From a virus, in UHGV virus genome UHGV-0042152: a DNA stretch of 27,733 bases. The stretch is one strand, 5' to 3'. Of the stretch, positions 50 to 13,880 are shown piece by piece. Every line of letters begins with the position of its first letter. Position 1 is the first letter of the stretch. The translations under genes and the position numbers were made by a program. Under the pieces are notes generated by a model. It saw nothing but the letters and a program-made list of their open reading frames with translations. It was not told where the DNA came from and did no database searches.

Positions 50-1042
50 CTAATCGATGGACAGTTTATGGACACTTTCAGCCAGCGGATTAAAGTTGAT
101 CGCGTCCAGTAAAAAGTCCGGCGAAAAATGAGCGTACGTCATTGTTTGCTGAATCGTTGCGTGCCCCAGGATTCGTTGCAACGTAACAATATTTCCGCCA
201 TTCATCATAAAGTGTGTGGCAAATGTATGACGCATGACATGCGTAGCCTGCCCCTTCGGCAAATCCGGTTTCACCTCCTGAAGAATCTCCCGGAACTTCA
301 GATAATCAACCTGATACAATAACCCCGTTCGACGGGTTTTAATCAGAGGCACGACCGAATCCGCCACAGGAACCGAACGGGATTTTCCGTTTTTGGTGTT
401 AAAGAACGTCACCCGGTTGCCAACGATATGCTCTCCACGTAGTTCCGATGCTTCACTCCATCGGGCACCAGTAGAAAGACACAGAATGGCAACACGACGC
501 GCATCACCCTCCAGTCGCTCAAGAAGCCGTTCAATCTCATCATCAGAAAGAAAGGCCATCTCTGTGTTCTGAACTTTCAGTTTTCGTATACCGCGTACAG
601 GGTTCGCGTTGTGAAAGACCTCAGCTTCAATCAGCACCGTGAACATGGTAGACAGTACGCATAAGTCACGATTAATACTGGACGGCATTAATCCGGCCTG
701 TAATTTCTCTGACCGATATTCAAGCATAAATTTTCGCGTCATCTGACTGGCGCGAGGATCTCCCATTTCACGAACAACCTTCCCTAGCCTAACCCTGTAG
801 CTATCCCCGTAAGCCTGATTACGCCCATCAAGCATCCACCACGCATCAAGCAGCTCTGATAATCGCCGCTGATCAGCTGGCTTAGCCTGCCATGGCTTGT
901 CATGAAAGTTCTGTAACACATACTTCTCAAACTCCTGAGCCTTTGATTTCAGGGCAAAGATTTTTCGAATCCGCTTTCCTTCCGCCCCCTGCGGTCTGAC
1001 ATCGACCTGATAACGTCCGTCTTTGAGTTGCTTAATCGACAT
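50..1042 (-). CDS. int: P2-type tyrosine integrase
   Basis: Translation MSIKQLKDGRYQVDVRP...ILCLSTGARW...HVMRHTFATHFMMNGGNIVTLQRILGH...YAHF matches P2 Int along its length, including catalytic R, H-x-x-R and Y motifs. Start moved to the ATG at 1042, preceded by a GGAGGGG Shine-Dalgarno. Confidence 0.9.
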   Translation of the reverse strand: MSIKQLKDGRYQVDVRPQGAEGKRIRKIFALKSKAQEFEKYVLQNFHDKPWQAKPADQRRLSELLDAWWMLDGRNQAYGDSYRVRLGKVVREMGDPRASQMTRKFMLEYRSEKLQAGLMPSSINRDLCVLSTMFTVLIEAEVFHNANPVRGIRKLKVQNTEMAFLSDDEIERLLERLEGDARRVAILCLSTGARWSEASELRGEHIVGNRVTFFNTKNGKSRSVPVADSVVPLIKTRRTGLLYQVDYLKFREILQEVKPDLPKGQATHVMRHTFATHFMMNGGNIVTLQRILGHATIQQTMTYAHFSPDFLLDAINFNPLAESVHKLSID

Positions 1043-1111
1043 GATTAGCCCCTCCAACGGATAAATTAACTAAACACTCCTTGCGATATGTAATTCGCTC
1101 AATGTGTAGAG

Positions 1112-1453
1112 TCAGCCAACATTGCGGCCTGATCGGGGTGATTTTTGGGTAATACCGATTGAAACCTGATCGCCCTCCGACTGAATAGATCCATCAAGAG
1201 AGAGAGCCGGAGCAATCTGCCCGGCGACAGGTAGCGTCTTATCTTTTATTAGCCACAGCATGTATTTTTCAAAGCGATCGACTTGCAGAACCGCCTCAAC
1301 GATTTTTGCTCTAGCGTTCTTTTGCCCCGATTCGTAATTCCTTATGGTTGCCAAAGACAACCCAGTAATATCCGCAAACTGCTTTTGTGTTAACCCTTCC
1401 GCCTTACGTATCTGACGTAACTTTTTTGCGTAGTCTATTGACAAGATAACCAT
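1112..1453 (-). CDS. C: P2 C-type immunity repressor (HTH)
   Basis: N-terminal HTH (LTQKQFADITGLSLATIRNYESG) and the conserved GQIAPAL and KY-LW motifs shared with P2 C repressor. Divergent from the early operon. Start chosen at the MVILS methionine (1453) with a GAGAGG RBS. Confidence 0.8.
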   Translation of the reverse strand: MVILSIDYAKKLRQIRKAEGLTQKQFADITGLSLATIRNYESGQKNARAKIVEAVLQVDRFEKYMLWLIKDKTLPVAGQIAPALSLDGSIQSEGDQVSIGITQKSPRSGRNVG

Positions 1454-1557
1454 TTGAGTATTAACCTCTCGCACAAAGATAACCTTTTGGTTATCTTTAC
1501 AAGCCAAAACAAACCATCACAAGGCGCGACAAGCGCACCAACGCAAGAGGATAACAA
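1441..1557. promoter_or_regulatory. Lysis-lysogeny switch region (divergent Pc/Pe) with candidate operator repeats
   Basis: Intergenic region between divergent repressor and early operon. AAGATAACC at 1443-1451, and a perfect 10-bp-arm palindrome AAAGATAACC-TTTT-GGTTATCTTT at 1475-1498. Exact -35/-10 elements not resolved. Confidence 0.5.
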
Positions 1558-2079
1558 ATGCGGGACTTCATTGCCGATAAAGAGTTATCTGACCACCAAC
1601 CACTTCAGGAAAGTGACGCACTCAGCGGATCCATTGATGCCGCCAACGACGACGAGCACGAAGAAAACAAGAAAAAGCGTTCCTACAAAAAAGGAGCGAC
1701 TTTGCGGCTGGATGGTCCGATCGCCGGGCTTTGCTCTCTGGAAAAAGGCGCGGCATATATTGGGCTAACAAAATCTGCACTGCGCGTAGCCATTCATCGC
1801 GGTCAAATGCCGGGACACAAGACGCGCACAAACCCGGAAGATGAAAACTCAGACGGAGTATGGTGGTTTAACGCCAAAGAGTGGGACAAGTTGGCTGATG
1901 AGCTACCAGAGCACGAGCCCCCAGAATGGCACAACTGGAAAAGTTACTGGACGTATGACCGCCAGAAAAGGAAGTTCTCTCCAGCTAATAAAGAAGACTG
2001 CCAGACCATTAACGGTAAGCGAGTTTATACAGGCAGAAGCTCAAAACTGGACCAACTCAGAAACAACAGAGGCAACTAA
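1558..2079 (+). CDS. First early-operon protein, Cox/excisionase-like HTH protein with acidic N-terminal extension (putative)
   Basis: Sits in the position of P2 cox directly after the switch region, with AGAGGA RBS. Possible HTH segment (IGLTKSALRVAIHRGQMPG) and a GVWWF segment loosely resembling Cox. At 173 aa it is much longer than P2 Cox (91 aa). Confidence 0.45.
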   Translation: MRDFIADKELSDHQPLQESDALSGSIDAANDDEHEENKKKRSYKKGATLRLDGPIAGLCSLEKGAAYIGLTKSALRVAIHRGQMPGHKTRTNPEDENSDGVWWFNAKEWDKLADELPEHEPPEWHNWKSYWTYDRQKRKFSPANKEDCQTINGKRVYTGRSSKLDQLRNNRGN

Positions 2080-2083
2080 TCGT

Positions 2084-2506
2084 ATGAAAACAAACACGTC
2101 AGATTTCACAATAACTATTTCAAAAAATGACCAAGCATTAATTGATAACCTGAAATACCTTGCGGAAAAACATAATAACGGACGAATTGCAATTAATTTA
2201 CGACACATCACAGGAGTAACAATTGTAACCAGTTACTGGCATCTATATCTAATCGCTAAATCAGTACTTGAAAACAAAGATTCTGTTGTCAATGGAAGAG
2301 ATATAGATACTCTTCCTGCACAAATCAAACCGATAGCCTATCAATTGCGTAATCGTTTTAAAAATGAAGGTGGGATTATATTTGACTTTCCCGCAGCTGT
2401 AGCCGTGAGCTTCTCTCGGGAGGATATACTTCACTCATTTCGTTTTGCTCTATCAGGTGACGAGACATTATGGCAGCTAGAAGATGCCGGGAGCAGCCCG
2501 GCATAA
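2084..2506 (+). CDS. Hypothetical protein (141 aa) in AT-rich island
   Basis: ORF with ATG at 2084 and an AGAGG RBS about 12 nt upstream. Markedly AT-rich codon usage relative to flanking phage genes. No recognisable motif. Confidence 0.5.
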   Translation: MKTNTSDFTITISKNDQALIDNLKYLAEKHNNGRIAINLRHITGVTIVTSYWHLYLIAKSVLENKDSVVNGRDIDTLPAQIKPIAYQLRNRFKNEGGIIFDFPAAVAVSFSREDILHSFRFALSGDETLWQLEDAGSSPA

Positions 2507-2512
2507 ATCAAA

Positions 2513-2704
2513 TTAAAAATCAACCAGTTGTGTGACAGGTGGGTATTTACGCTGAATTTTGTCAGTTACTAACGCCAGTAATATATGAATCTCTGTGTTT
2601 AATGCGTCTTTATCACCCGTCGTTTTTACCCTGGGAGGGTTAATGTTATCCAGAGCAGCACTAAGTTCACTCAACAAATTAACAACTTTTTTATCTTCTG
2701 ACAT
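2513..2704 (-). CDS. Hypothetical small protein (63 aa), convergent with upstream gene
   Basis: Minus-strand ORF with an AAGAGG RBS 5 nt upstream of the ATG. Lies in the same AT-rich island. No motif recognised. Confidence 0.35.
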   Translation of the reverse strand: MSEDKKVVNLLSELSAALDNINPPRVKTTGDKDALNTEIHILLALVTDKIQRKYPPVTQLVDF

Positions 2705-2841
2705 GAAAACCTCTTAACAATTTAATTAAACATAAGCCAGGACCTGAACCGGCCAGTCCAAGTCCTAGACACACAAAAAAAATACCACAAATCAATACAA
2801 GGTGACACGAGTACACCTTACCGAAGGTACAGAGTTTTAAT

Positions 2842-3192
2842 ATGAAACTACAGCGCAATTCTTCACAGCAGCGCTTCCGCAACGGTGCGGAACGCCATGC
2901 TAACCGTTTCGCTACCAGTGCATCACGTAGCAACTCTCGCTACAGCCTGAGCGAAACACACGCCACACCTGATGGACATCCCGTAAAACAAATCGGCGAG
3001 CACACTTGGTTGATTGAGAAAGCTGGAATCGTGGTCCACAAATGCCCACGCAATCCGTTTACCGGAAACCGCATTTTTGCATTGAACTGCGGCGACAATC
3101 ACTTCGGGCAGGATTTCACATTGTACGAAGCACTTCGCACGGTTGATCGTCTGCTTCGTGGGCAAAGTTTTATTAAACAGGCTGATTTATAA
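2842..3192 (+). CDS. Hypothetical early protein (116 aa)
   Basis: ORF in early operon orientation. No recognisable domain. Confidence 0.45.
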   Translation: MKLQRNSSQQRFRNGAERHANRFATSASRSNSRYSLSETHATPDGHPVKQIGEHTWLIEKAGIVVHKCPRNPFTGNRIFALNCGDNHFGQDFTLYEALRTVDRLLRGQSFIKQADL

Positions 3193-3202
3193 CAGGTGCT
3201 TT

Positions 3203-3481
3203 ATGACCAAAGAGCATGCTCAAGGTGTATTTATTCGTTTTATTGATTTTCGCGGTGAACTGTTATTACGCGCATCAGCTATTGATGGAGTCGTTCCATC
3301 CGAAAAAAATGCAGCTACTTACGTTTATCTGAACGGCACGCGCCTGACCGTAGAACTTCCGTACCAGACTGTACACGAAATCAGTAGCGAAGCGGAAAAA
3401 GCACGTAAGACTAATGGCGATGAACCCTATATCGAAATTATTTGTATGGATTCAGAAGCTGAAATCCAGAAAGCAGATTAA
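3203..3481 (+). CDS. Hypothetical early protein (92 aa)
   Basis: ORF with ATG at 3203, chosen to avoid overlap with the upstream ORF. No recognisable domain. Confidence 0.45.
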   Translation: MTKEHAQGVFIRFIDFRGELLLRASAIDGVVPSEKNAATYVYLNGTRLTVELPYQTVHEISSEAEKARKTNGDEPYIEIICMDSEAEIQKAD

Positions 3482-3492
3482 AGGGTGTTGCA

Positions 3493-3735
3493 ATGGACAA
3501 AGAATATAAAACACTCATCAACAAAGCACTTGAGCGTTTTTATTTTCGCTTAAGCGCATCAGGCGTTCATGCTGAACGTGCAGCCCGTGACTCATTGACC
3601 AGGGCAATCCGGAGTCTGTATGACGTGGCTTTTTACGCTGATGATCTGGATGCACTTAACGAACTTTCCGAGCTGATCTGTGCCGCAGAATGCGGAGAAC
3701 ATATTGAACCGTATAAGCTGGGGAATATCGCATGA
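3493..3735 (+). CDS. Hypothetical early protein (80 aa)
   Basis: ORF with ATG at 3493, close-packed with neighbours. No recognisable domain. Confidence 0.45.
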   Translation: MDKEYKTLINKALERFYFRLSASGVHAERAARDSLTRAIRSLYDVAFYADDLDALNELSELICAAECGEHIEPYKLGNIA

Positions 3736-4991: not shown

Positions 4992-5195
4992 ATGAACAAC
5001 AAGACATGGTTTCGTGCATATGCATGGGCGCTGGTATGCGTCCTCGTCTCTCTCATTCTGTATGTAGGGGTACTCCCCCGAATGATTTCATCAGACAGCT
5101 CCTTCCTGGTATTGCTGGGCATTTTCATTGCCATGCTGTACCCGGCAGGCGTTGTTCGCCTTTTCAGTAAGTACATCAAGGAAATCAAACAATGA
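4992..5195 (+). CDS. Small inner-membrane protein (67 aa, two predicted TM helices), partner of SPFH protein
   Basis: Hydrophobic segments WALVCVLVSLILYVGVL and FLVLLGIFIAMLYPAGVV. Stop overlaps the start of the downstream SPFH gene (ATGA at 5192). Confidence 0.5.
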   Translation: MNNKTWFRAYAWALVCVLVSLILYVGVLPRMISSDSSFLVLLGIFIAMLYPAGVVRLFSKYIKEIKQ

Positions 5196-6022
5196 AGAAA
5201 TTCAGACTCTTTCAGATTCTCCCGCTTTTTGCCGCCATCCTGCTGGTTGGCTGCGATCGCGTTGAGCCAGGTAATGTGGGCATCAAAGTCAACAAGCTGG
5301 GCGACGACAAAGGCGTTGGCGAAGTGGTTGGCGTTGGCCGCTACTGGACTGGCTGGAATACCGAGGTTTACATCTTCCCGACCTTCAAACAAATGAAGAC
5401 CTACGATGACCCGTTCAGCTTCCAGATGAGTGACGGCACAACCATCGGCTATCACATCGGCGTGGCCTACAAGGTCGATCCATCCAAAGTTACCACAGTG
5501 TTTCAGACCTACCGCAAAGGCGTGGACGACATTACCGACACTGACCTGCGCCAGAAGATCGCCGACGCACTCAACCGACTGGCCAGCAAAATGACCACAG
5601 ATAAATTCATCGACGGTGGCAAGTCTGAACTGCTGGATTCAGCACTTAAAGATATTCAGGCAGAAATGACACCCATCGGCATTCAGGTAATGAGCCTCTC
5701 TTATGTCGGTAAACCGGAATACCCACCAACCGTGATCGACAGCATTAATGCCAAAGTCACAGCGAACCAGAAAACCCTGCAACGCGAACAGGAAGTAAAA
5801 CAGCGCGAAGCAGAAGCCAACATGTTGCGCGCAGAAGCTGCCGGACAGGCTGATGCCATTCGTACAAAAGCCCAGGCTGAAGCCGACGCCATTCGTTTAC
5901 GCGGTGAAGCTCTGCGCCAGAATCCCGGCGTTATGGAGCTGGAAGCGATTAACAAATGGAACGGCACGCTACCGCAATACATGACCAGTAACACCGCTGT
6001 TCCGTTTGTTCCGGTGAAGTAA
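5192..6022 (+). CDS. SPFH/band-7 (HflK/C-prohibitin-like) domain lipoprotein
   Basis: N-terminal lipoprotein signal with lipobox LLVGC. Central SPFH-like region followed by an Ala/Glu/Arg/Gln-rich coiled-coil tail (QREQEVKQREAEANMLRAEAAGQADAIRTKAQAEADAIRLRGEALRQ) typical of band-7 proteins. Confidence 0.7.
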   Translation: MKKFRLFQILPLFAAILLVGCDRVEPGNVGIKVNKLGDDKGVGEVVGVGRYWTGWNTEVYIFPTFKQMKTYDDPFSFQMSDGTTIGYHIGVAYKVDPSKVTTVFQTYRKGVDDITDTDLRQKIADALNRLASKMTTDKFIDGGKSELLDSALKDIQAEMTPIGIQVMSLSYVGKPEYPPTVIDSINAKVTANQKTLQREQEVKQREAEANMLRAEAAGQADAIRTKAQAEADAIRLRGEALRQNPGVMELEAINKWNGTLPQYMTSNTAVPFVPVK

Positions 6023-6692: not shown

Positions 6693-7058
6693 ATGATTCT
6701 CGCCAACGACTTTCTTGAATACCTGCTCAACACAGAACGTGATCTTGCCGCTCGCGTGCGTGATCGTTATGACATGTACCTGAAATCCCTGCCTGTACCG
6801 CAGCTCGCTGACGGAAAGATTGTTATTGATGGTCGCTACATGATTGACAGCCATGAGGAAAATTACAGGCTTTACCGCATTGAAGGTGGCACCCCGTCCG
6901 TTATTGGCATTTACCAGCGCCCATCCTCTGCAATCGTCGATGTGATTGCCGACAGCATCCGCATCACACATCGCCATGCCGACACAGAAGACACCGTGCT
7001 GGAAATTCAGCGGCTGGCTACAGTCTGCCGCGACACCCTGAATGGCATGACGAAGTAA
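6693..7058 (+). CDS. Hypothetical protein (121 aa) immediately upstream of gpA
   Basis: ORF with AGAGGA RBS, in the position of the small P2 ORFs that precede gene A. Confidence 0.5.
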   Translation: MILANDFLEYLLNTERDLAARVRDRYDMYLKSLPVPQLADGKIVIDGRYMIDSHEENYRLYRIEGGTPSVIGIYQRPSSAIVDVIADSIRITHRHADTEDTVLEIQRLATVCRDTLNGMTK

Positions 7059-7064
7059 ATCACT

Positions 7065-9887
7065 ATGACGGCAGAGTACATCAGGGACTGGCAACAACCG
7101 CGCCACGCAGTGGGTCGTGAAGGAACGGGAATCCCCGCTCCTGAATCCGAGCTTTCCTCCTGGCTGGATGCCTACCGGGCAGAGAACGAGCGCCGCCAGG
7201 AAATGGCTGATGCGGCGTTCTCCGCCACGCCGCTGGGCAACCTGATTAATAAAAGCCTGGACGCACAGGAAAAACAGGACAAAACCATCACACTGGCCAG
7301 AGAAGCCAGAAAACAGGCACGTGGCGCGGTGGATGAAGCCATGGCCTCGCTGCGCCTGCTGCCGTCCTATCTGCGCGATCCGCTTATTCGCCACCTCTCC
7401 TTCCTGCGCAAAAAACAGGAAGCCGATCGCCGGAAAGGCAAAAAGAGCTGGCAGGCGGAACGCTATGCACGCGGAACCCTGCGCAAAATATTCGAACGTC
7501 TGGATCGCACTGACGGACACTGGCTGACACCGGGTTATCGCTCCCTTGCCGGACGCGAACGCCTGGACGATTTGCTTTACCTGCCGCAGCTCAACAAACA
7601 CCAGATACAGACGCTGGCCACCATGACGGCGGCGATGTTCAGCAGCACCTTCGAAAAACTCTGTGATGGCTTTGGTGCCAGAGATGGCGAGCTGACCATG
7701 GATGTAACGCTGAAGGCGTATCAGATGCTGGCCCGCATGGCGTTACACCTGCACATCATGCCTCCACATTATGACGCACTGACAACAGATAAAGACCGGA
7801 GGAACGAACCGGACACGGAGCTGCTGCCGGGCGCAGTCCTTCGCCTGACCTGTGCGGAATGGTGGAAACGCAAACTGTGGCTGTTACGTTGCGAGTGGAG
7901 AGAAGAACAACTCCGCGCCGCCTGTCTGGTTTCCAGAAAAACATCACCCTATCTGAGCCAGGACGCGTTAAGCGAGTTTCGCGCACAGCGCGAGAAAACA
8001 CGCGATTTCCTGAAAAGTTTCATGCTGGAAAACGAAGACGGGTTCACGATTGATCTCGAGACAGTGTATTACGCGGGAGTAAGTAACCCGGTTCACCGTA
8101 AGGCAGAAATGATGGCCACCATGAAGGGGCTGGAACTTCTGGCCGAAGCCCGTGGCGACAAAGCGGTGTTTCTGACTGTCACCTGCCCGTCAAAATACCA
8201 CGCCACAACAGAGAACGGTCATCCGAATCCCAAATGGAACGGGGCCACCATGCGCGACTCCAGCGATTACCTGGTTAACACGTTTTTTGCGGCGGTCCGC
8301 AAAAAACTGAACCGCGACGGTCTTCGCTGGTATGGCATCCGCACGGTGGAGCCTCACCATGACGGCACCGTGCACTGGCATATGATGGTCTTTGCTCATC
8401 CGGAAGAAATCGACAGCATCGTGGCCATCACCCGCGATATTGCCATTCAGGAAGACCGCCACGAGCTGGGCAATGATATTACTCCGCGCTTTAAGGCGGA
8501 GTATGTCGACGGCTCAAAAGGCACACCAACCAGCTATATCGCGACCTACATCGGAAAGAACCTGGACAGCCGCGCCGTGGATGGCATCGACCCGAAAACG
8601 GGCAAGCCACGCGTTGACCACGAAACCGGAAAATCAATGGCCGAGAGTGTGGAGCGCGCCATCGGCTGGGCGCGCCTTCATCGGGTCCGCCAGTTCCAGT
8701 TCTTTGGCATCCCCCCCCGTCAGGTGTGGCGTGAACTGCGCCGCCTTGCCAGCCAGATGGCACGCAACCCGGAAGGCCCGCAACGACTGAAAGATGACGC
8801 AATGGATGCGGTACTCGCTGCCGCCGATGCCGGGTGTTTTGCCACCTACATTGAAAAACAGGGCGGCGTACTTGTTCCACGCAAAGACTACCTGATTCGC
8901 ACCGCCTACGACCTCGCAGATGAGCTGAATGATTACGGCGAACAGAGCGTACAGATTTACGGGATCTGGTCACCACTCATCGGGGAATCCTCCCGTGTGT
9001 GCACGCATCCGGATAACTGGAAACTGGTAAGACGTAAACCGGAAACGGAAGACAGCGCCCGCGAAAATGGTTTTGACCTTCAGGGCGGCCCTGCCGCCCC
9101 TTGGACTCGTGGCAATAACTGTCCCCGTGTACAGGAAACGGACAACAACGGGACAGAACAGCCGGAAGAACGGCCAGCACCGTGGCCGCAGCTTCCTGAC
9201 GGCGTTGACGTGAACGAATGGATGCGCTCACTGAAACGGCACGAACGCCGGGCGCTGATGCGTTCGCTGCGTGACAAACAGGCAAAAAACAGCAGTGATG
9301 AAATGCAGAGCTGGACACAGAGCCGCAAACAGCAGCGGCCTTTGCCTGATAACCACGAATTACTCGCTAAAGAATGGCGGGAATCTGCCGAATCTCTCGG
9401 CCTGCATATCGGTGAACAGCAGATGCAGCACCTGTTACGGGGCGGCAGCCTGTACGTTGACGGCAGCATCATTGCACCGCAGGGATTTGAAATTGTACGC
9501 AAACCGGATACCCGCCCGGACAGCCGAATCACGCAGCTCTGGCAGCGCCTGAGCCGTAATCACGGCGTAAGCAGCACGGAGATCCGCCATAACCCGGTCG
9601 CCAGCTATCTGGAACAGCTGGGGGCATCAGACCCCGAAGCCGCCGCACGTCTGGCATCCACACTTCAGCAGGACCAGAACACCATGACCCCCCCCGTTAC
9701 CGTGCTTTCTGACATGCTGCGCGCCATCCGCGACGCAGAGCACGCACAGAGAATCAGTGAAACCACTGAACGTGCCCGCCGCAAAGCAGACCTGCTGCGG
9801 GGTGGCCTGACCAGTGGAAACAAAAAACAGACAGAAACGGGATTCACAAATCCCGTAAATGAGCAAAAAACGCGCCGCGATATATGA
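7065..9887 (+). CDS. A: Replication initiation protein gpA (rolling-circle HUH endonuclease)
   Basis: Central region matches P2 gpA (VFLTVTCPSKYH..., VEPHHDGTVHWHMMVF HUH motif, YIATYIGKNLD catalytic-Tyr region). 940 aa versus 761 aa in P2, so the ends are diverged or extended. Confidence 0.9.
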   Translation: MTAEYIRDWQQPRHAVGREGTGIPAPESELSSWLDAYRAENERRQEMADAAFSATPLGNLINKSLDAQEKQDKTITLAREARKQARGAVDEAMASLRLLPSYLRDPLIRHLSFLRKKQEADRRKGKKSWQAERYARGTLRKIFERLDRTDGHWLTPGYRSLAGRERLDDLLYLPQLNKHQIQTLATMTAAMFSSTFEKLCDGFGARDGELTMDVTLKAYQMLARMALHLHIMPPHYDALTTDKDRRNEPDTELLPGAVLRLTCAEWWKRKLWLLRCEWREEQLRAACLVSRKTSPYLSQDALSEFRAQREKTRDFLKSFMLENEDGFTIDLETVYYAGVSNPVHRKAEMMATMKGLELLAEARGDKAVFLTVTCPSKYHATTENGHPNPKWNGATMRDSSDYLVNTFFAAVRKKLNRDGLRWYGIRTVEPHHDGTVHWHMMVFAHPEEIDSIVAITRDIAIQEDRHELGNDITPRFKAEYVDGSKGTPTSYIATYIGKNLDSRAVDGIDPKTGKPRVDHETGKSMAESVERAIGWARLHRVRQFQFFGIPPRQVWRELRRLASQMARNPEGPQRLKDDAMDAVLAAADAGCFATYIEKQGGVLVPRKDYLIRTAYDLADELNDYGEQSVQIYGIWSPLIGESSRVCTHPDNWKLVRRKPETEDSARENGFDLQGGPAAPWTRGNNCPRVQETDNNGTEQPEERPAPWPQLPDGVDVNEWMRSLKRHERRALMRSLRDKQAKNSSDEMQSWTQSRKQQRPLPDNHELLAKEWRESAESLGLHIGEQQMQHLLRGGSLYVDGSIIAPQGFEIVRKPDTRPDSRITQLWQRLSRNHGVSSTEIRHNPVASYLEQLGASDPEAAARLASTLQQDQNTMTPPVTVLSDMLRAIRDAEHAQRISETTERARRKADLLRGGLTSGNKKQTETGFTNPVNEQKTRRDI

Positions 9888-9963: not shown

Positions 9964-10923
9964 ATGAAAATTTGTATCGACGACGGCTCCACCAACATCA
10001 AGCTGGCATGGACTGAGAATGGCGAACGCCGCAACGCCATCAGCCCGAACAGCTTCAAGTCGGAATGGTCTGCGCCGTTCGGTGGCATGCAGCCCGCGAA
10101 CTACATGCTTGATGGCGTGCGCTATGGTTTTGATCCGGTTAGCGATCGCTTTGTCCAGACGACCGACACGCAATACCAGTACAGCGATGTGAATGTAATC
10201 GCCATTCATCACGCGCTGGTCAAATCAGGCATCACGCCACAGGAGGTGGATGTGGTTGTCACCCTGCCACTGAGCGAGTATTTCGACACAAACGCACAGC
10301 CGGACATGGCCAACATCAACCGCAAAAAAGCGAACGTTATGCGCCCGGTGGAGTACCAGAACGGCGAAGCATTCACTATCCGTAACGTGCGGGTTATGCC
10401 TGAATCCATTCCGGCTGGCTTTAAGGCACTGGCTGACATGAGTCCGTTTGAATCCCTGCTGATTGTGGATTTAGGCGGAACCACGCTGGATGTGGCAAAG
10501 GTTCAGGGACAACTGGCAGGTATCAGCCAGGTGCTTTGCGATCCACACGTAGGCGTTTCCCTGATGGCCGATGCCGTACTGTCGGTGATGGCCACTAACG
10601 GTATGCGTACCAGTCACCACATCGCCAATACCATTATCGAACATCGCCATGATGAAGCCTGGCTGCGCCAGCACATCCACAATGACGCGCATTACGCCAG
10701 CCTGATGGCGGTTATTCGTGAAAAGGAAGAAACACTGAAACAACGCGTGATCCGCGCGCTGGCGGGTTTTTCGGGTTACGGGCGGGTGATGGTTGTCGGT
10801 GGCGGGGCAGAGATTGTGGCACCCGCTATCCGCGAAGCCTGCGGAGTTAATGCGACTTTCATCGCGGACGGGGTGCCACAGTTTGCTCTGGTTAATGGGC
10901 TGTACGCAATGGACAAGGAGTAA
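9964..10923 (+). CDS. parM: ParM/StbA-family actin-like segregation ATPase
   Basis: Strong similarity along the whole protein to plasmid R1 ParM as recalled (IDDGSTNIKL, ISPNSFK-EW, QYSDVNV-A-HHAL, VMPESIPAG, DLGGTTLD, GVSL, GGGAE, LVNG-Y). AAGGAAAAG RBS. Confidence 0.85.
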   Translation: MKICIDDGSTNIKLAWTENGERRNAISPNSFKSEWSAPFGGMQPANYMLDGVRYGFDPVSDRFVQTTDTQYQYSDVNVIAIHHALVKSGITPQEVDVVVTLPLSEYFDTNAQPDMANINRKKANVMRPVEYQNGEAFTIRNVRVMPESIPAGFKALADMSPFESLLIVDLGGTTLDVAKVQGQLAGISQVLCDPHVGVSLMADAVLSVMATNGMRTSHHIANTIIEHRHDEAWLRQHIHNDAHYASLMAVIREKEETLKQRVIRALAGFSGYGRVMVVGGGAEIVAPAIREACGVNATFIADGVPQFALVNGLYAMDKE

Positions 10924-11302: not shown

Positions 11303-11635
11303 ATGCAACACATTGACAGAGAAAAAGCGCAGCGACTGATTGAGCGGATGGAAGCGCTGGCGAAAGAAGAAAATGTCAACATCCAAAAAATAGCTGAATG
11401 TGGCCAGATAGTTCTTCGTCGTGAAAAAGACCTCAAACAACTGATGTCTGGCGAAACCAGCAAAACATGGACTTCAGGCGAGAAGACGGTTTATTGCAGC
11501 TTCTGCAATAAATCCCAGTACGAAGTCACAAAGGTGATTGCCGGACCGTCTGTTTACATCTGCAATGAGTGCGTGGATTTGTGCAATGAAATTATCAGGA
11601 AAGAAGTGACAGACAAAAAGGAAAAAAACGCATGA
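11303..11635 (+). CDS. Stand-alone ClpX-type C4 zinc-binding domain protein (110 aa)
   Basis: C-terminal half [38 protein letters not shown] is near-identical in pattern to the N-terminal zinc-binding domain of ClpX (C-x2-C...C-x2-C). No AAA+ module follows. The N-terminal ~55 aa are coiled-coil-like. AGGGGGA RBS. Confidence 0.7.
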
Positions 11636-12389: not shown

Positions 12390-12653
12390 ATGGCAACTTT
12401 GACAAAAAAAGAACAAGCATGGTTGAGCGAATTACAGGACGTTCTTGATCGCTGTCCATCACCGAAAAAAATTGGTTTTTACACCATTGGCGATAAAAGC
12501 ATTTACCTGTATGACCTACGCCGCATGGATGAAATCATGGAGGCTCTTGATAATCGTTCGTCAATGGATTGGTGTGTTGCTGTCCATGATATGAATGCAG
12601 GGTTTGATGAAAAGATTTTGTTCCCCTCATCAGTTGAAAGCACAGCAGGATAA
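12390..12653 (+). CDS. Hypothetical protein (87 aa)
   Basis: ATG at 12390 with an AAAGGAGAG RBS. Tightly packed after the upstream gene. Confidence 0.5.
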   Translation: MATLTKKEQAWLSELQDVLDRCPSPKKIGFYTIGDKSIYLYDLRRMDEIMEALDNRSSMDWCVAVHDMNAGFDEKILFPSSVESTAG

Positions 12654-12686
12654 GGACCCAGCAAATATACACAACCTATAAAACAC

Positions 12687-12714
12687 TAAAGCGCCTCAGG
12701 GGCGCTTTTTGTTT
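12687..12714 (+). terminator. Rho-independent terminator ending the parM-to-small-ORF operon
   Basis: AAGCGCC-TCAG-GGGCGCTT hairpin followed by TTTTTGTTT. Confidence 0.65.
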
Positions 12715-12817
12715 GCACAAAAGTGCACAAATTTGCACAATTTTTTTGAACGACTTTTTACCCTTCCGGCCCGCATGGCGGCTGGATCCGTCAAGGATCC
12801 GTGCGTGCACAAAAAAA
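12711..12817. promoter_or_regulatory. Repeat-rich non-coding region (phased TGCACAA repeats and duplicated GGATCCGT)
   Basis: TGCACAA at 12714, 12724, 12734 (10-bp phasing) and again at 12807. GGATCCGT at 12784 and 12795 (11-bp spacing). Function unknown. Confidence 0.35.
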
Positions 12818-13104
12818 CGCGCTTTTTCTGCGCGCAGGTGACGGGGGAACAGCCCGCGTTTCAGGGGGTAAATAGCATTCCCTGAACGATGTCGCAGAGA
12901 CACAACAGAATGGCCATATTTCTCACGCTGAGCATGAAAAAGGCGTGAGGGCTTTTGATTTGATGGGGTGAAAGGTAAGGCCGTCAAAATCGCACTGAGG
13001 CAGCGAGAACATGCAGTCAACGCGGTGGAATTGCGTAAGAGTCTGACCGTCGATGGTGGCGATAAACTGGAAGGCGTCGTGAAATTATCTGATTGATACA
13101 GGAG

Positions 13105-13236
13105 NNNNNNNNNNNNNNNNNNNNNNNNNNNNNNNNNNNNNNNNNNNNNNNNNNNNNNNNNNNNNNNNNNNNNNNNNNNNNNNNNNNNNNNNNNNNNNNN
13201 NNNNNNNNNNNNNNNNNNNNNNNNNNNNNNNNNNNN
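13105..13236. other. Run of N (masked or unsequenced, 132 nt)
   Basis: Literal n characters in the sequence. Confidence 1.
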
Positions 13237-13343
13237 GGCGGGGCGAAGCAGCAGACAAGCGAAGCGCGTCAGCGATACGGCACCTTGCCGACCATACTTC
13301 ATAAGTGCAAAATACGAGCAAAGAAATCAATGGAGGCTGTCTT

Positions 13344-13880
13344 ATGGTCATTAATTACAAGCAGTTAAGAGAAAAACGGGAGCAGGTAAAGGAGAGCTTT
13401 CGCCGCAATGAAGATCTGACCCCGCTTGTACGCCTTGCCCAGGGCATTGTTGATGCTTATGAAATCTCGCTGGAGCTGCCATCACAGACCTGGACAGATA
13501 GCGACGGTAATCGCCAGCATTACGTTTCATGCGGACTGGAAGCAGCCGAAGGATTTCGCAGAATGCCTTTATCCCAGATCCCTGCCGCTACCCCCAAAGC
13601 ACGGGGCAGCAATGATGAGCGAAAACTGACTTTTAGTATTGAAACGGTGGTTGACGACACACCTGGCGAAGTCGCGTTCGTGCACACTCCTGTTTCGATC
13701 GCAATGTATAACGATGAAATACAGGTTCGCGTTAATAATAATATCGTGCCACTTAAAGAAGGTAATTCACCCTACACCACCGTTTGTGAAGCCATTCAAT
13801 ATTACGTTCTCTCTGAAATTGATAATCTCAAGCCTGACGGCACCCAGAAAGGTCATGCACAACGCGTACCCGTGAAAACC
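13344..13880 (+). CDS. Hypothetical protein, 3' end hidden by N-run (at least 179 aa)
   Basis: ATG at 13344 with a GGAGG RBS 6 nt upstream. Continuous reading frame to the N-run at 13881. Occupies the position adjacent to cos/portal where P2 carries old. Confidence 0.4.

Follow-up and report, generated by a model that had tools for sequence, protein, structure and literature searches.

The virus genome UHGV-0042152, whose whole stretch of 27,733 nucleotides (27.7 kb) was analyzed and is called the window in the following, is a P88-like prophage of Escherichia coli (Xuanwuvirus, P2-like). Its early region harbors an AT-rich island between the gene cox and a gene of the DUF4761 family, and this island contains two small convergent open reading frames (ORFs), ORF140 and ORF63. 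The island is a conserved, non-essential accessory module of two genes, which P2-like prophages of both E. coli and Salmonella carry in the variable slot after cox or apl. The following features were found at the locus (positions in the window, lengths in amino acids, aa, or nucleotides, nt):

1558-2079, plus strand: cox, 173 aa, first gene of the rightward early operon and left border of the module
2068-2072, plus strand: Shine-Dalgarno-like AGAGG of ORF140, within the 3' end of cox and 11 nt ahead of the ATG, read from the sequence
2078-2766: AT-rich island with ORF140 and ORF63 (module slot about 2080-2830)
2084-2506, plus strand: ORF140, 140 aa, alpha/beta protein of a small unannotated family
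2504-2484, minus strand: GC-rich hairpin ATGCCGGG-CTGCT-CCCGGCAT, candidate one-way terminator of the ORF63 transcript
2513-2704, minus strand: ORF63, 63 aa, with conserved N-terminal M(N/S)EDxKxxxLL and C-terminal KYP
2715-2710, minus strand: Shine-Dalgarno sequence AAGAGG for ORF63, 5 nt before the ATG, read from the sequence
2737-2768, minus strand: stem-loop of 14 pairs where the island ends on the right, in what is predicted to be the 5' leader of the ORF63 mRNA
2775-2782: A-run (T-run on the ORF63 strand), which overlaps the -10-like hexamer 2784-2779 and reaches towards the leader hairpin
2789-2779, minus strand: TGTGGTATTTT, extended -10-like motif for ORF63, putative promoter element
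2842-3192, plus strand: DUF4761 gene (Pfam DUF4761, 231 bits), next backbone early gene and right border of the module

The G+C content, calculated in windows of 300 bp, amounts to 0.34-0.42 at about 1950-2850 and to 0.45-0.53 on both sides. Over its 689 bp the island has a G+C content of 0.380 compared to a mean of 0.527 for the window (standard deviation 0.053). Only 0.28% of all stretches of this length are as low, and the global minimum of 0.373 starts at position 2041. This confirms the sharp drop in composition that had been described in an earlier note, made from the letters of the window alone; the deviation which it took as a mark of cargo is among the most extreme of the window, and the composition differs from that of the flanks.

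The start codon of ORF140 lies 4 nt past the stop codon of cox. As this leaves no space for a promoter of its own in the window, ORF140 is considered a gene of the early operon. The ORF and its ribosome binding site (RBS) had been recognized before, but its length of 141 aa has to be corrected to 140, since codon 141 is the stop. The convergent ORF63 with its own RBS was found as described, and the Shine-Dalgarno position is occupied by AAAAGGA in the homologous loci. The stop codons of both genes are 6 nt apart. ORF63 is predicted to consist of two helices (residues 3-21 and 31-53) with a conserved NINPPR loop between them (single-sequence AlphaFold2 model, predicted local distance difference test, pLDDT, 68), whereas the AlphaFold2 model of ORF140 is of low confidence (pLDDT 60).

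Both proteins are annotated as hypothetical in RefSeq and GenBank, in every copy of the pair, and a literature search with their RefSeq accessions returned nothing. Neither ORF140 and ORF63 nor their homologues had a significant match in Pfam, PHROGs, NCBIfam or PADLOC, and PADLOC-DB 2.0 contained no defense model for either of them at E-values up to 1. A similarity to DUF1408 was judged to be noise, as it reached 15 bits (cut-off 27) in only one of 13 members. Profile searches against the PDB yielded nothing below an E-value of 0.7 for both proteins, fold comparisons gave no match for either, and the best hit of the ORF63 model among viral structures (BFVD) had an E-value of 3. No Rfam family was matched in the region 1400-3400 at E-values up to 1. 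Comparison of the two family profiles with 271 early-region ORFs of P2, 186, P88 and UMNK88, including cII, fil and dhr of 186, did not exceed 10 bits. The observation of the earlier note that neither protein resembles P2 early genes therefore holds, while the profile and structure-prediction checks that it had proposed for a cargo function returned no family, PDB or fold match.

Relatives outside the near-identical copies are few. An exhaustive HMMER search of 1.84 billion cluster representatives with the single ORF140 sequence detected Salmonella proteins with 30-34% identity (E-value 1e-7), and the profile search led to 19 clusters; wherever the source names the organism, it is E. coli or Salmonella. 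For ORF140 and ORF63 alike, searching 5.8 billion proteins with a word index retrieved nothing beyond near-identical copies from E. coli. A tblastn search of 50,697 phage records matched only the three records bearing the same island, and two scans of species-representative genomes revealed no relatives.

The chromosomal loci of the homologues (L numbers) and two IMG/VR contigs were examined for the arrangement of the pair. An ORF63 homologue of 60-63 aa, convergent to an ORF140 homologue, was found in seven distinct contexts, namely the window, L005, L009, L021, L027, L029/L030 and L032. The 3' ends of the two genes overlap by 4 nt in five of these contexts and are 4-6 nt apart in the other two. 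The pair-bearing prophages differ in their integrases, repressors, cox or apl types and attachment sites. The ORF140 homologue is always located in a P2-like prophage just downstream of cox or apl (L005, L007, L008, L009, L021, L027, L029, L031 and L032), with one small ORF in between in L021, L031 and L008.

For moderately diverged pairs, the ratio of non-synonymous to synonymous substitution rates (dN/dS) is 0.19-0.37 for the ORF140 homologues and 0.14-0.21 for the ORF63 homologues. Neither frameshifts nor stops were detected in ORF140 or ORF63 among 20 near-identical E. coli copies. The polymorphism of these copies (five non-synonymous vs. three synonymous changes in ORF140, three vs. two in ORF63) is too sparse to reveal selection. 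The latter would fit spurious ORFs in a non-coding AT-rich spacer, as would the missing database family. However, protein homologues with 20-40% identity exist in related prophages, the frames are open in every locus, the dN/dS values are well below 1 and the RBSs are conserved. The explanation by spurious ORFs, which the earlier note had named as its own refutation, is thereby refuted and has practically no probability left. Judged from these sequence comparisons, ORF140 and ORF63 are genuine protein genes under purifying selection, which belong to no described family.

The G+C content of the pair is 0.40-0.42 in L005, L009 and L021 compared to 0.45-0.51 for those host loci, and the module is AT-rich (38-42% G+C) wherever it was found. 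Its copies have diverged to 20-40% amino acid identity with saturated synonymous sites and still occupy the same cox-proximal slot. Because of this uniform composition and deep divergence, the low G+C content is an old feature of the module and does not mark a recent arrival, and the recent acquisition assumed in the earlier note is not supported.

A mosaic was observed between L009 (3754-4343) and L029 (5001-5599), in which the ORF63 homologues are 97% identical but the ORF140 homologues only 51%. This points to a recombination breakpoint at the 3' overlap and the terminator hairpin. It follows that recombination separates both genes and that any interaction between them is not highly allele-specific.

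The mosaic would also fit two functionally unrelated accessory genes, a moron standing by itself (ORF63) and an early gene without relation to it (ORF140), whose adjacency is kept by the embedded ORF63 terminator and by a cox-proximal block recombining as a unit. The same applies to the ORF140 homologues which occur without ORF63, alone in L007 and L031 and with another partner in L008. On the other hand, the tail-to-tail layout was kept in all seven contexts, down to 20-40% identity and with every neighbor changed, and the ORF63 homologues in the contexts examined are never alone but always have an ORF140 homologue nearby. This conserved linkage suggests a functional tie, and the explanation by unrelated genes, although it deserves to be taken seriously, is rather doubtful.

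Several variants of ORF140 were observed in Salmonella. In L008 (6001-6705, P0019) and L032 (5001-5678, P0016), an N-terminal part similar to ORF140 is fused to a C-terminal extension. Over 95 aa, the extension of P0019 shares 45% identity with the C-terminal domain encoded by the gene that comes after the pair in L009 (4461-5339, phrog_10410). L032 contains two ORF140 paralogues, one of which is paired with an ORF63 homologue. The ORF140-like gene of L008 is faced by the other convergent partner, a gene of 168 aa (6731-7237, minus strand, phrog_9021). A likeness of DUF4761 to the gene after the pair in Salmonella was considered and rejected (E-value 1.3).

The module is an accessory element of its phage family. 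In P88, the DUF4761 gene follows 37 nt after cox and the slot is empty; the homology of P88 to the window restarts at about 2835, and the other Xuanwuviruses match only from about 2835 rightwards. Using window positions 1500-3300 as query, the matches of P88 and its relatives begin at query positions 1326-1391. The pair was found in 270 of 5426 complete E. coli genomes (about 5%), always as a single copy and always chromosomal. In addition, this 1.8-kb region is 98% identical in the three phage records carrying the pair (vB_EcoM-569R5, vB_EcoM-705R2 and an ST131 prophage record). At least one record with the pair comes from an O25b:H4-ST131 host.

Other cargo was identified in the same slot. 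At least 16 E. coli genomes contain sister prophages of the UMNK88 type, which share the integrase and have a related repressor as well as a cox of 173 aa, and in which the slot is occupied by a gene on the plus strand for a 68-aa peptide with apparently two transmembrane segments (L035, 2636-2842). The sequence at 2783-2808 of the window looks like a degenerate remnant of the 5' end of this peptide gene. In the Salmonella loci L006 and L007, a hydrophobic ORF of 58 aa lies between cox and the ORF140 homologue.

One genome, NZ_CM136152.1 (L002, compared at 3500-3540), lacks exactly the positions 2078-2766 and shows the only such junction among the 5426 genomes. According to the L002 alignment the deletion junctions are GGCAAC|TAATCG and CCAAGTC|CTAGACAC, with almost no microhomology at the ends. 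By the fusion, cox gains 12 codons and encodes 185 aa, whereas its native end is at about 173 aa according to the phrog_23196 profile, UMNK88 and the L021 homologue. The flanks are of the window type and include 2767-2835 with the promoter motif of ORF63, a segment that is not shared by P88 and UMNK88. The junction is unique, has window-type flanks and extends cox, and is therefore better interpreted as a secondary deletion; an ancestral empty site was rejected on the same grounds. The prophage is otherwise intact as far as examined, i.e., in the early region up to gpA.

The signals around ORF63 were analyzed in the seven loci. The -10-like motif, with the consensus TGTGnTAYnTT, is invariant in all of them and has a constant distance from the hairpin and the ATG, while the window sequence around it is otherwise unrelated to the Salmonella loci. 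It occurs only once in the 27.7-kb window, both strands counted, compared to 0.31 occurrences expected anywhere. A standard -35/-10 scan found no promoter at this site. The adjacent A-run at 2775-2782 varies in length from 6 to 8 by indels in the 20 near-identical copies, with 6 A in L002, and this variation could tune the expression of ORF63. In all seven loci a stem-loop follows 8-10 nt past the motif and is itself followed by the RBS and the ATG. In the window (2768-2737) it has a folding energy of -21.7 kcal/mol (z -3.0) and was flagged by the terminator scan; it is also strong in L005 (z -3.4) and L021 (z -4.5), but weak in the L009 group.

At the other end of the leftward unit, the hairpin at 2504-2484 begins 8 nt past the stop codon of ORF63, within the last codons of ORF140, and is followed by a weak T-tract, CTTCTAGCTG. 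A GC-rich hairpin on the ORF63 strand is found 8-36 nt past the stop in all seven loci, and terminators were called by the scanner at the equivalent place in L027 (tail TTTTTCTTTC) and L009 (tail TTCCTTTTGA). On the strand of the early operon, none of the seven loci has a T-run after the hairpin, and no terminator was called on the plus strand of the window before position 3149. Hence, the early transcription can run through to the DUF4761 gene and gene A. The designation of the island as a moron, which had been proposed in the earlier note, is thus partly appropriate: the island is accessory and deviant in G+C content, and ORF63 has a promoter-like motif and a terminator-like hairpin, but ORF140 is not autonomous, as it starts directly behind cox. 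The layout is unusually tidy, with a self-contained leftward gene nested in the early operon and its putative terminator placed in the coding end of its partner.

Based on this anatomy, we tentatively favor a reading in which the two genes would be expressed in opposite states of the phage and coupled by antisense, with ORF63 as a moron expressed in the prophage and ORF140 as its early-lytic partner; it is plausible, but well short of established. ORF140 would be read together with cox from the early lytic promoter and would thus be made only on infection or induction. ORF63 would form an autonomous leftward unit of promoter, leader stem-loop, strong RBS and terminator, oriented head-on within the early operon, and would be made in the lysogen while the C repressor shuts the early promoter. 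At the lytic switch, the head-on early transcription would overrun that of ORF63. Since the 3' ends abut and the ORF63 terminator lies inside the coding end of ORF140, the ORF63 mRNA is expected to be complementary (antisense) to the ORF140 message over roughly the final 20-50 nt of the latter. The ORF63 product of the lysogen might then be tied to ORF140 in one of two speculative ways, by restraining leaky ORF140 or by being counteracted by ORF140 during phage development. Equally speculative, such a coupling would follow the logic of a factor for exclusion or host modulation whose cognate partner is an early gene.

Several points weigh against this reading. We infer the promoter of ORF63, the ends of its transcript and its expression in the lysogen from the sequence. 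The T-tract of the terminator is weak in the window, L005 and L021, and in four of the seven loci the stability of the leader hairpin is not significant. The mosaic of L009 and L029 speaks against a tight partner-specific co-evolution. In the Salmonella loci, a gap of 260-330 nt precedes the ORF140 homologue, so that a separate promoter of this gene is possible in these loci. With seven paired contexts the sample is small, and no similarity to defense, anti-defense, toxin or regulator families was found by library, PDB and fold searches.

An exclusion or anti-defense role of the pair, as suggested in the earlier note, is possible. In its most specific form, the pair would be an exclusion device with a built-in key: ORF63, made constitutively in the lysogen, would block an early step of incoming phages, and ORF140, made first from the early operon, would neutralize it. 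Development would then stay open to the resident phage and to every phage with an ORF140 homologue. Such a key would account for the observations that ORF63 is never found without ORF140 and that ORF140 occurs alone, and for the apparent wiring of the genes to opposite states with a 3' antisense overlap. Such a device is, however, improbable in this exact form.

The position of ORF140 as the first gene after cox or apl, which is the place of cII in phage 186, raises the question of a modulator of the lysis-lysogeny decision like cII/OOP of lambda or cII/pE of 186. ORF140 would then bias the decision after infection, and the ORF63 transcript, running leftward, would act as a brake on it through antisense pairing and through its opposition to early transcription. 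A leftward unit that overlaps the rightward gene at its 3' end would be consistent with this, and the 186 record annotates the leftward promoter pE at the apl/cII junction. Nevertheless, scans of ORF140 and its homologues detected no helix-turn-helix (HTH) or other DNA-binding signature, and its profile scores about 0 bits against CII of 186. Furthermore, the leftward RNA, unlike OOP, encodes a protein under purifying selection, and P88 and most P2-like phages run their switch without the pair. A function as modulator is therefore unlikely.

A toxin-antitoxin or abortive-infection pair stabilizing the prophage had also been considered in the earlier note. Small two-gene cassettes with tight linkage on a mobile element are reminiscent of such systems, and some type I toxin-antitoxin systems have a 3' overlapping convergent layout, to which the pair bears an analogy. 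However, its genes are convergent and not co-directional in all seven contexts, Pfam, NCBIfam and PADLOC revealed no domain of a toxin or antitoxin, and both proteins lack the hydrophobic character of type I toxins. By their anatomy, the two genes would also not be co-expressed in the lysogen. The clean loss of both genes in NZ_CM136152.1 is neutral in this respect, and no copy was found with only one of them lost. Taken together, this makes a toxin-antitoxin pair very unlikely.

The module adds two new small protein families, which occur only in the slot next to the switch genes of P2-like prophages. If expression in opposite states and coupling prove true, the pair would be a compact and easy experimental model for the lysogen- and lytic-specific wiring of accessory genes in prophages. 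With coupling, it would be a candidate exclusion/counter-exclusion pair; otherwise, it would merely consist of two small accessory genes.

The setting of the module in the prophage is given by the following further genes:

50-1057, minus strand: integrase
1112-1507, minus strand: C-type HTH repressor
7065-9887: replication gene A, preceded by further early genes

The integrase is the same and adjoins dmsA in every related chromosomal locus examined (L001-L004 and L035). The cox gene, annotated as coding for a Cox family DNA-binding protein, matches Pfam Phage_Cox with 31 bits and phrog_23196 over positions 1-173 of 174 (E-value 1e-116), and cox of UMNK88 is of equal length (522 bp). At position 1915 of the window, one of the 20 near-identical copies has a nonsense mutation in cox (G to T, Glu to stop), which may keep this prophage from leaving lysogeny. 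Further products of the early and replication region are an SPFH/Band-7 protein (a lipoprotein by the P88 annotation), an actin-like segregation protein of the ParM type and a small ClpX-type C4 zinc finger protein (window 5192-6022, 9964-10923 and 11303-11635). The second-lowest G+C content of the window was found at 12500-13800, where an ORF of 208 aa (12676-13302, minus strand) without a match in Pfam or PADLOC is located. Its site between gene A/ParM and the portal gene is a known defense hotspot of P2.

Compared to known systems, the pair behaves like phage morons in the sense of Hendrix and Juhala, e.g., tin, old and Z/fun, the AT-rich genes of P2 for lysogenic conversion. Like these it is accessory, absent from close relatives and low in G+C content, and ORF63 lies between promoter-like and terminator-like signals of its own and points against the surrounding operon. 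In contrast to tin, old and fun, it has no sequence or fold similarity to them or to any PADLOC model, it is located beside cox and not in the gpA-portal or tail hotspots, and ORF63 is paired with a gene of the early operon that has the candidate terminator embedded in its coding end. In a survey of P2-like prophages, 8% of the recognized defense systems were located between integrase and primase (PMC13586616). The slot of the pair lies in this interval, which is listed there as a minor defense hotspot.

The arrangement of cII and OOP in lambda, where the role of OOP has been described (PMC7067206), and of apl-cII and pE in 186 is similar in two respects. A rightward gene directly follows a gene of the cro, cox or apl type, and a short leftward transcript, which is putative here, covers the 3' end of this gene and is directed against the early promoter. 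It differs in that the leftward RNA of the pair codes for a conserved protein of 60-63 aa, that ORF140 has neither an HTH nor similarity to CII, and that the module is dispensable in its phage family. By the profile comparisons, the pair is neither a CII homologue nor a PADLOC defense system nor a backbone gene of P2 or 186 (orf78, B, orf80-83; cII, fil, dhr).

With toxin-antitoxin cassettes the pair shares the compact two-gene format in a prophage. Unlike type II systems, it does not form an operon and contains no known toxin or antitoxin domain. Unlike type I systems, both partners are proteins and both are hydrophilic; only the anatomy implies an antisense overlap. Finally, the UMNK88-type cargo is a counterpart with regard to location, as it shares the backbone of int, C and a 173-aa cox, occupies the same slot between cox and DUF4761 and is similarly small. 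It is, however, a single co-directional gene for a membrane peptide of unrelated sequence, whereas the module of the window consists of two convergent genes.

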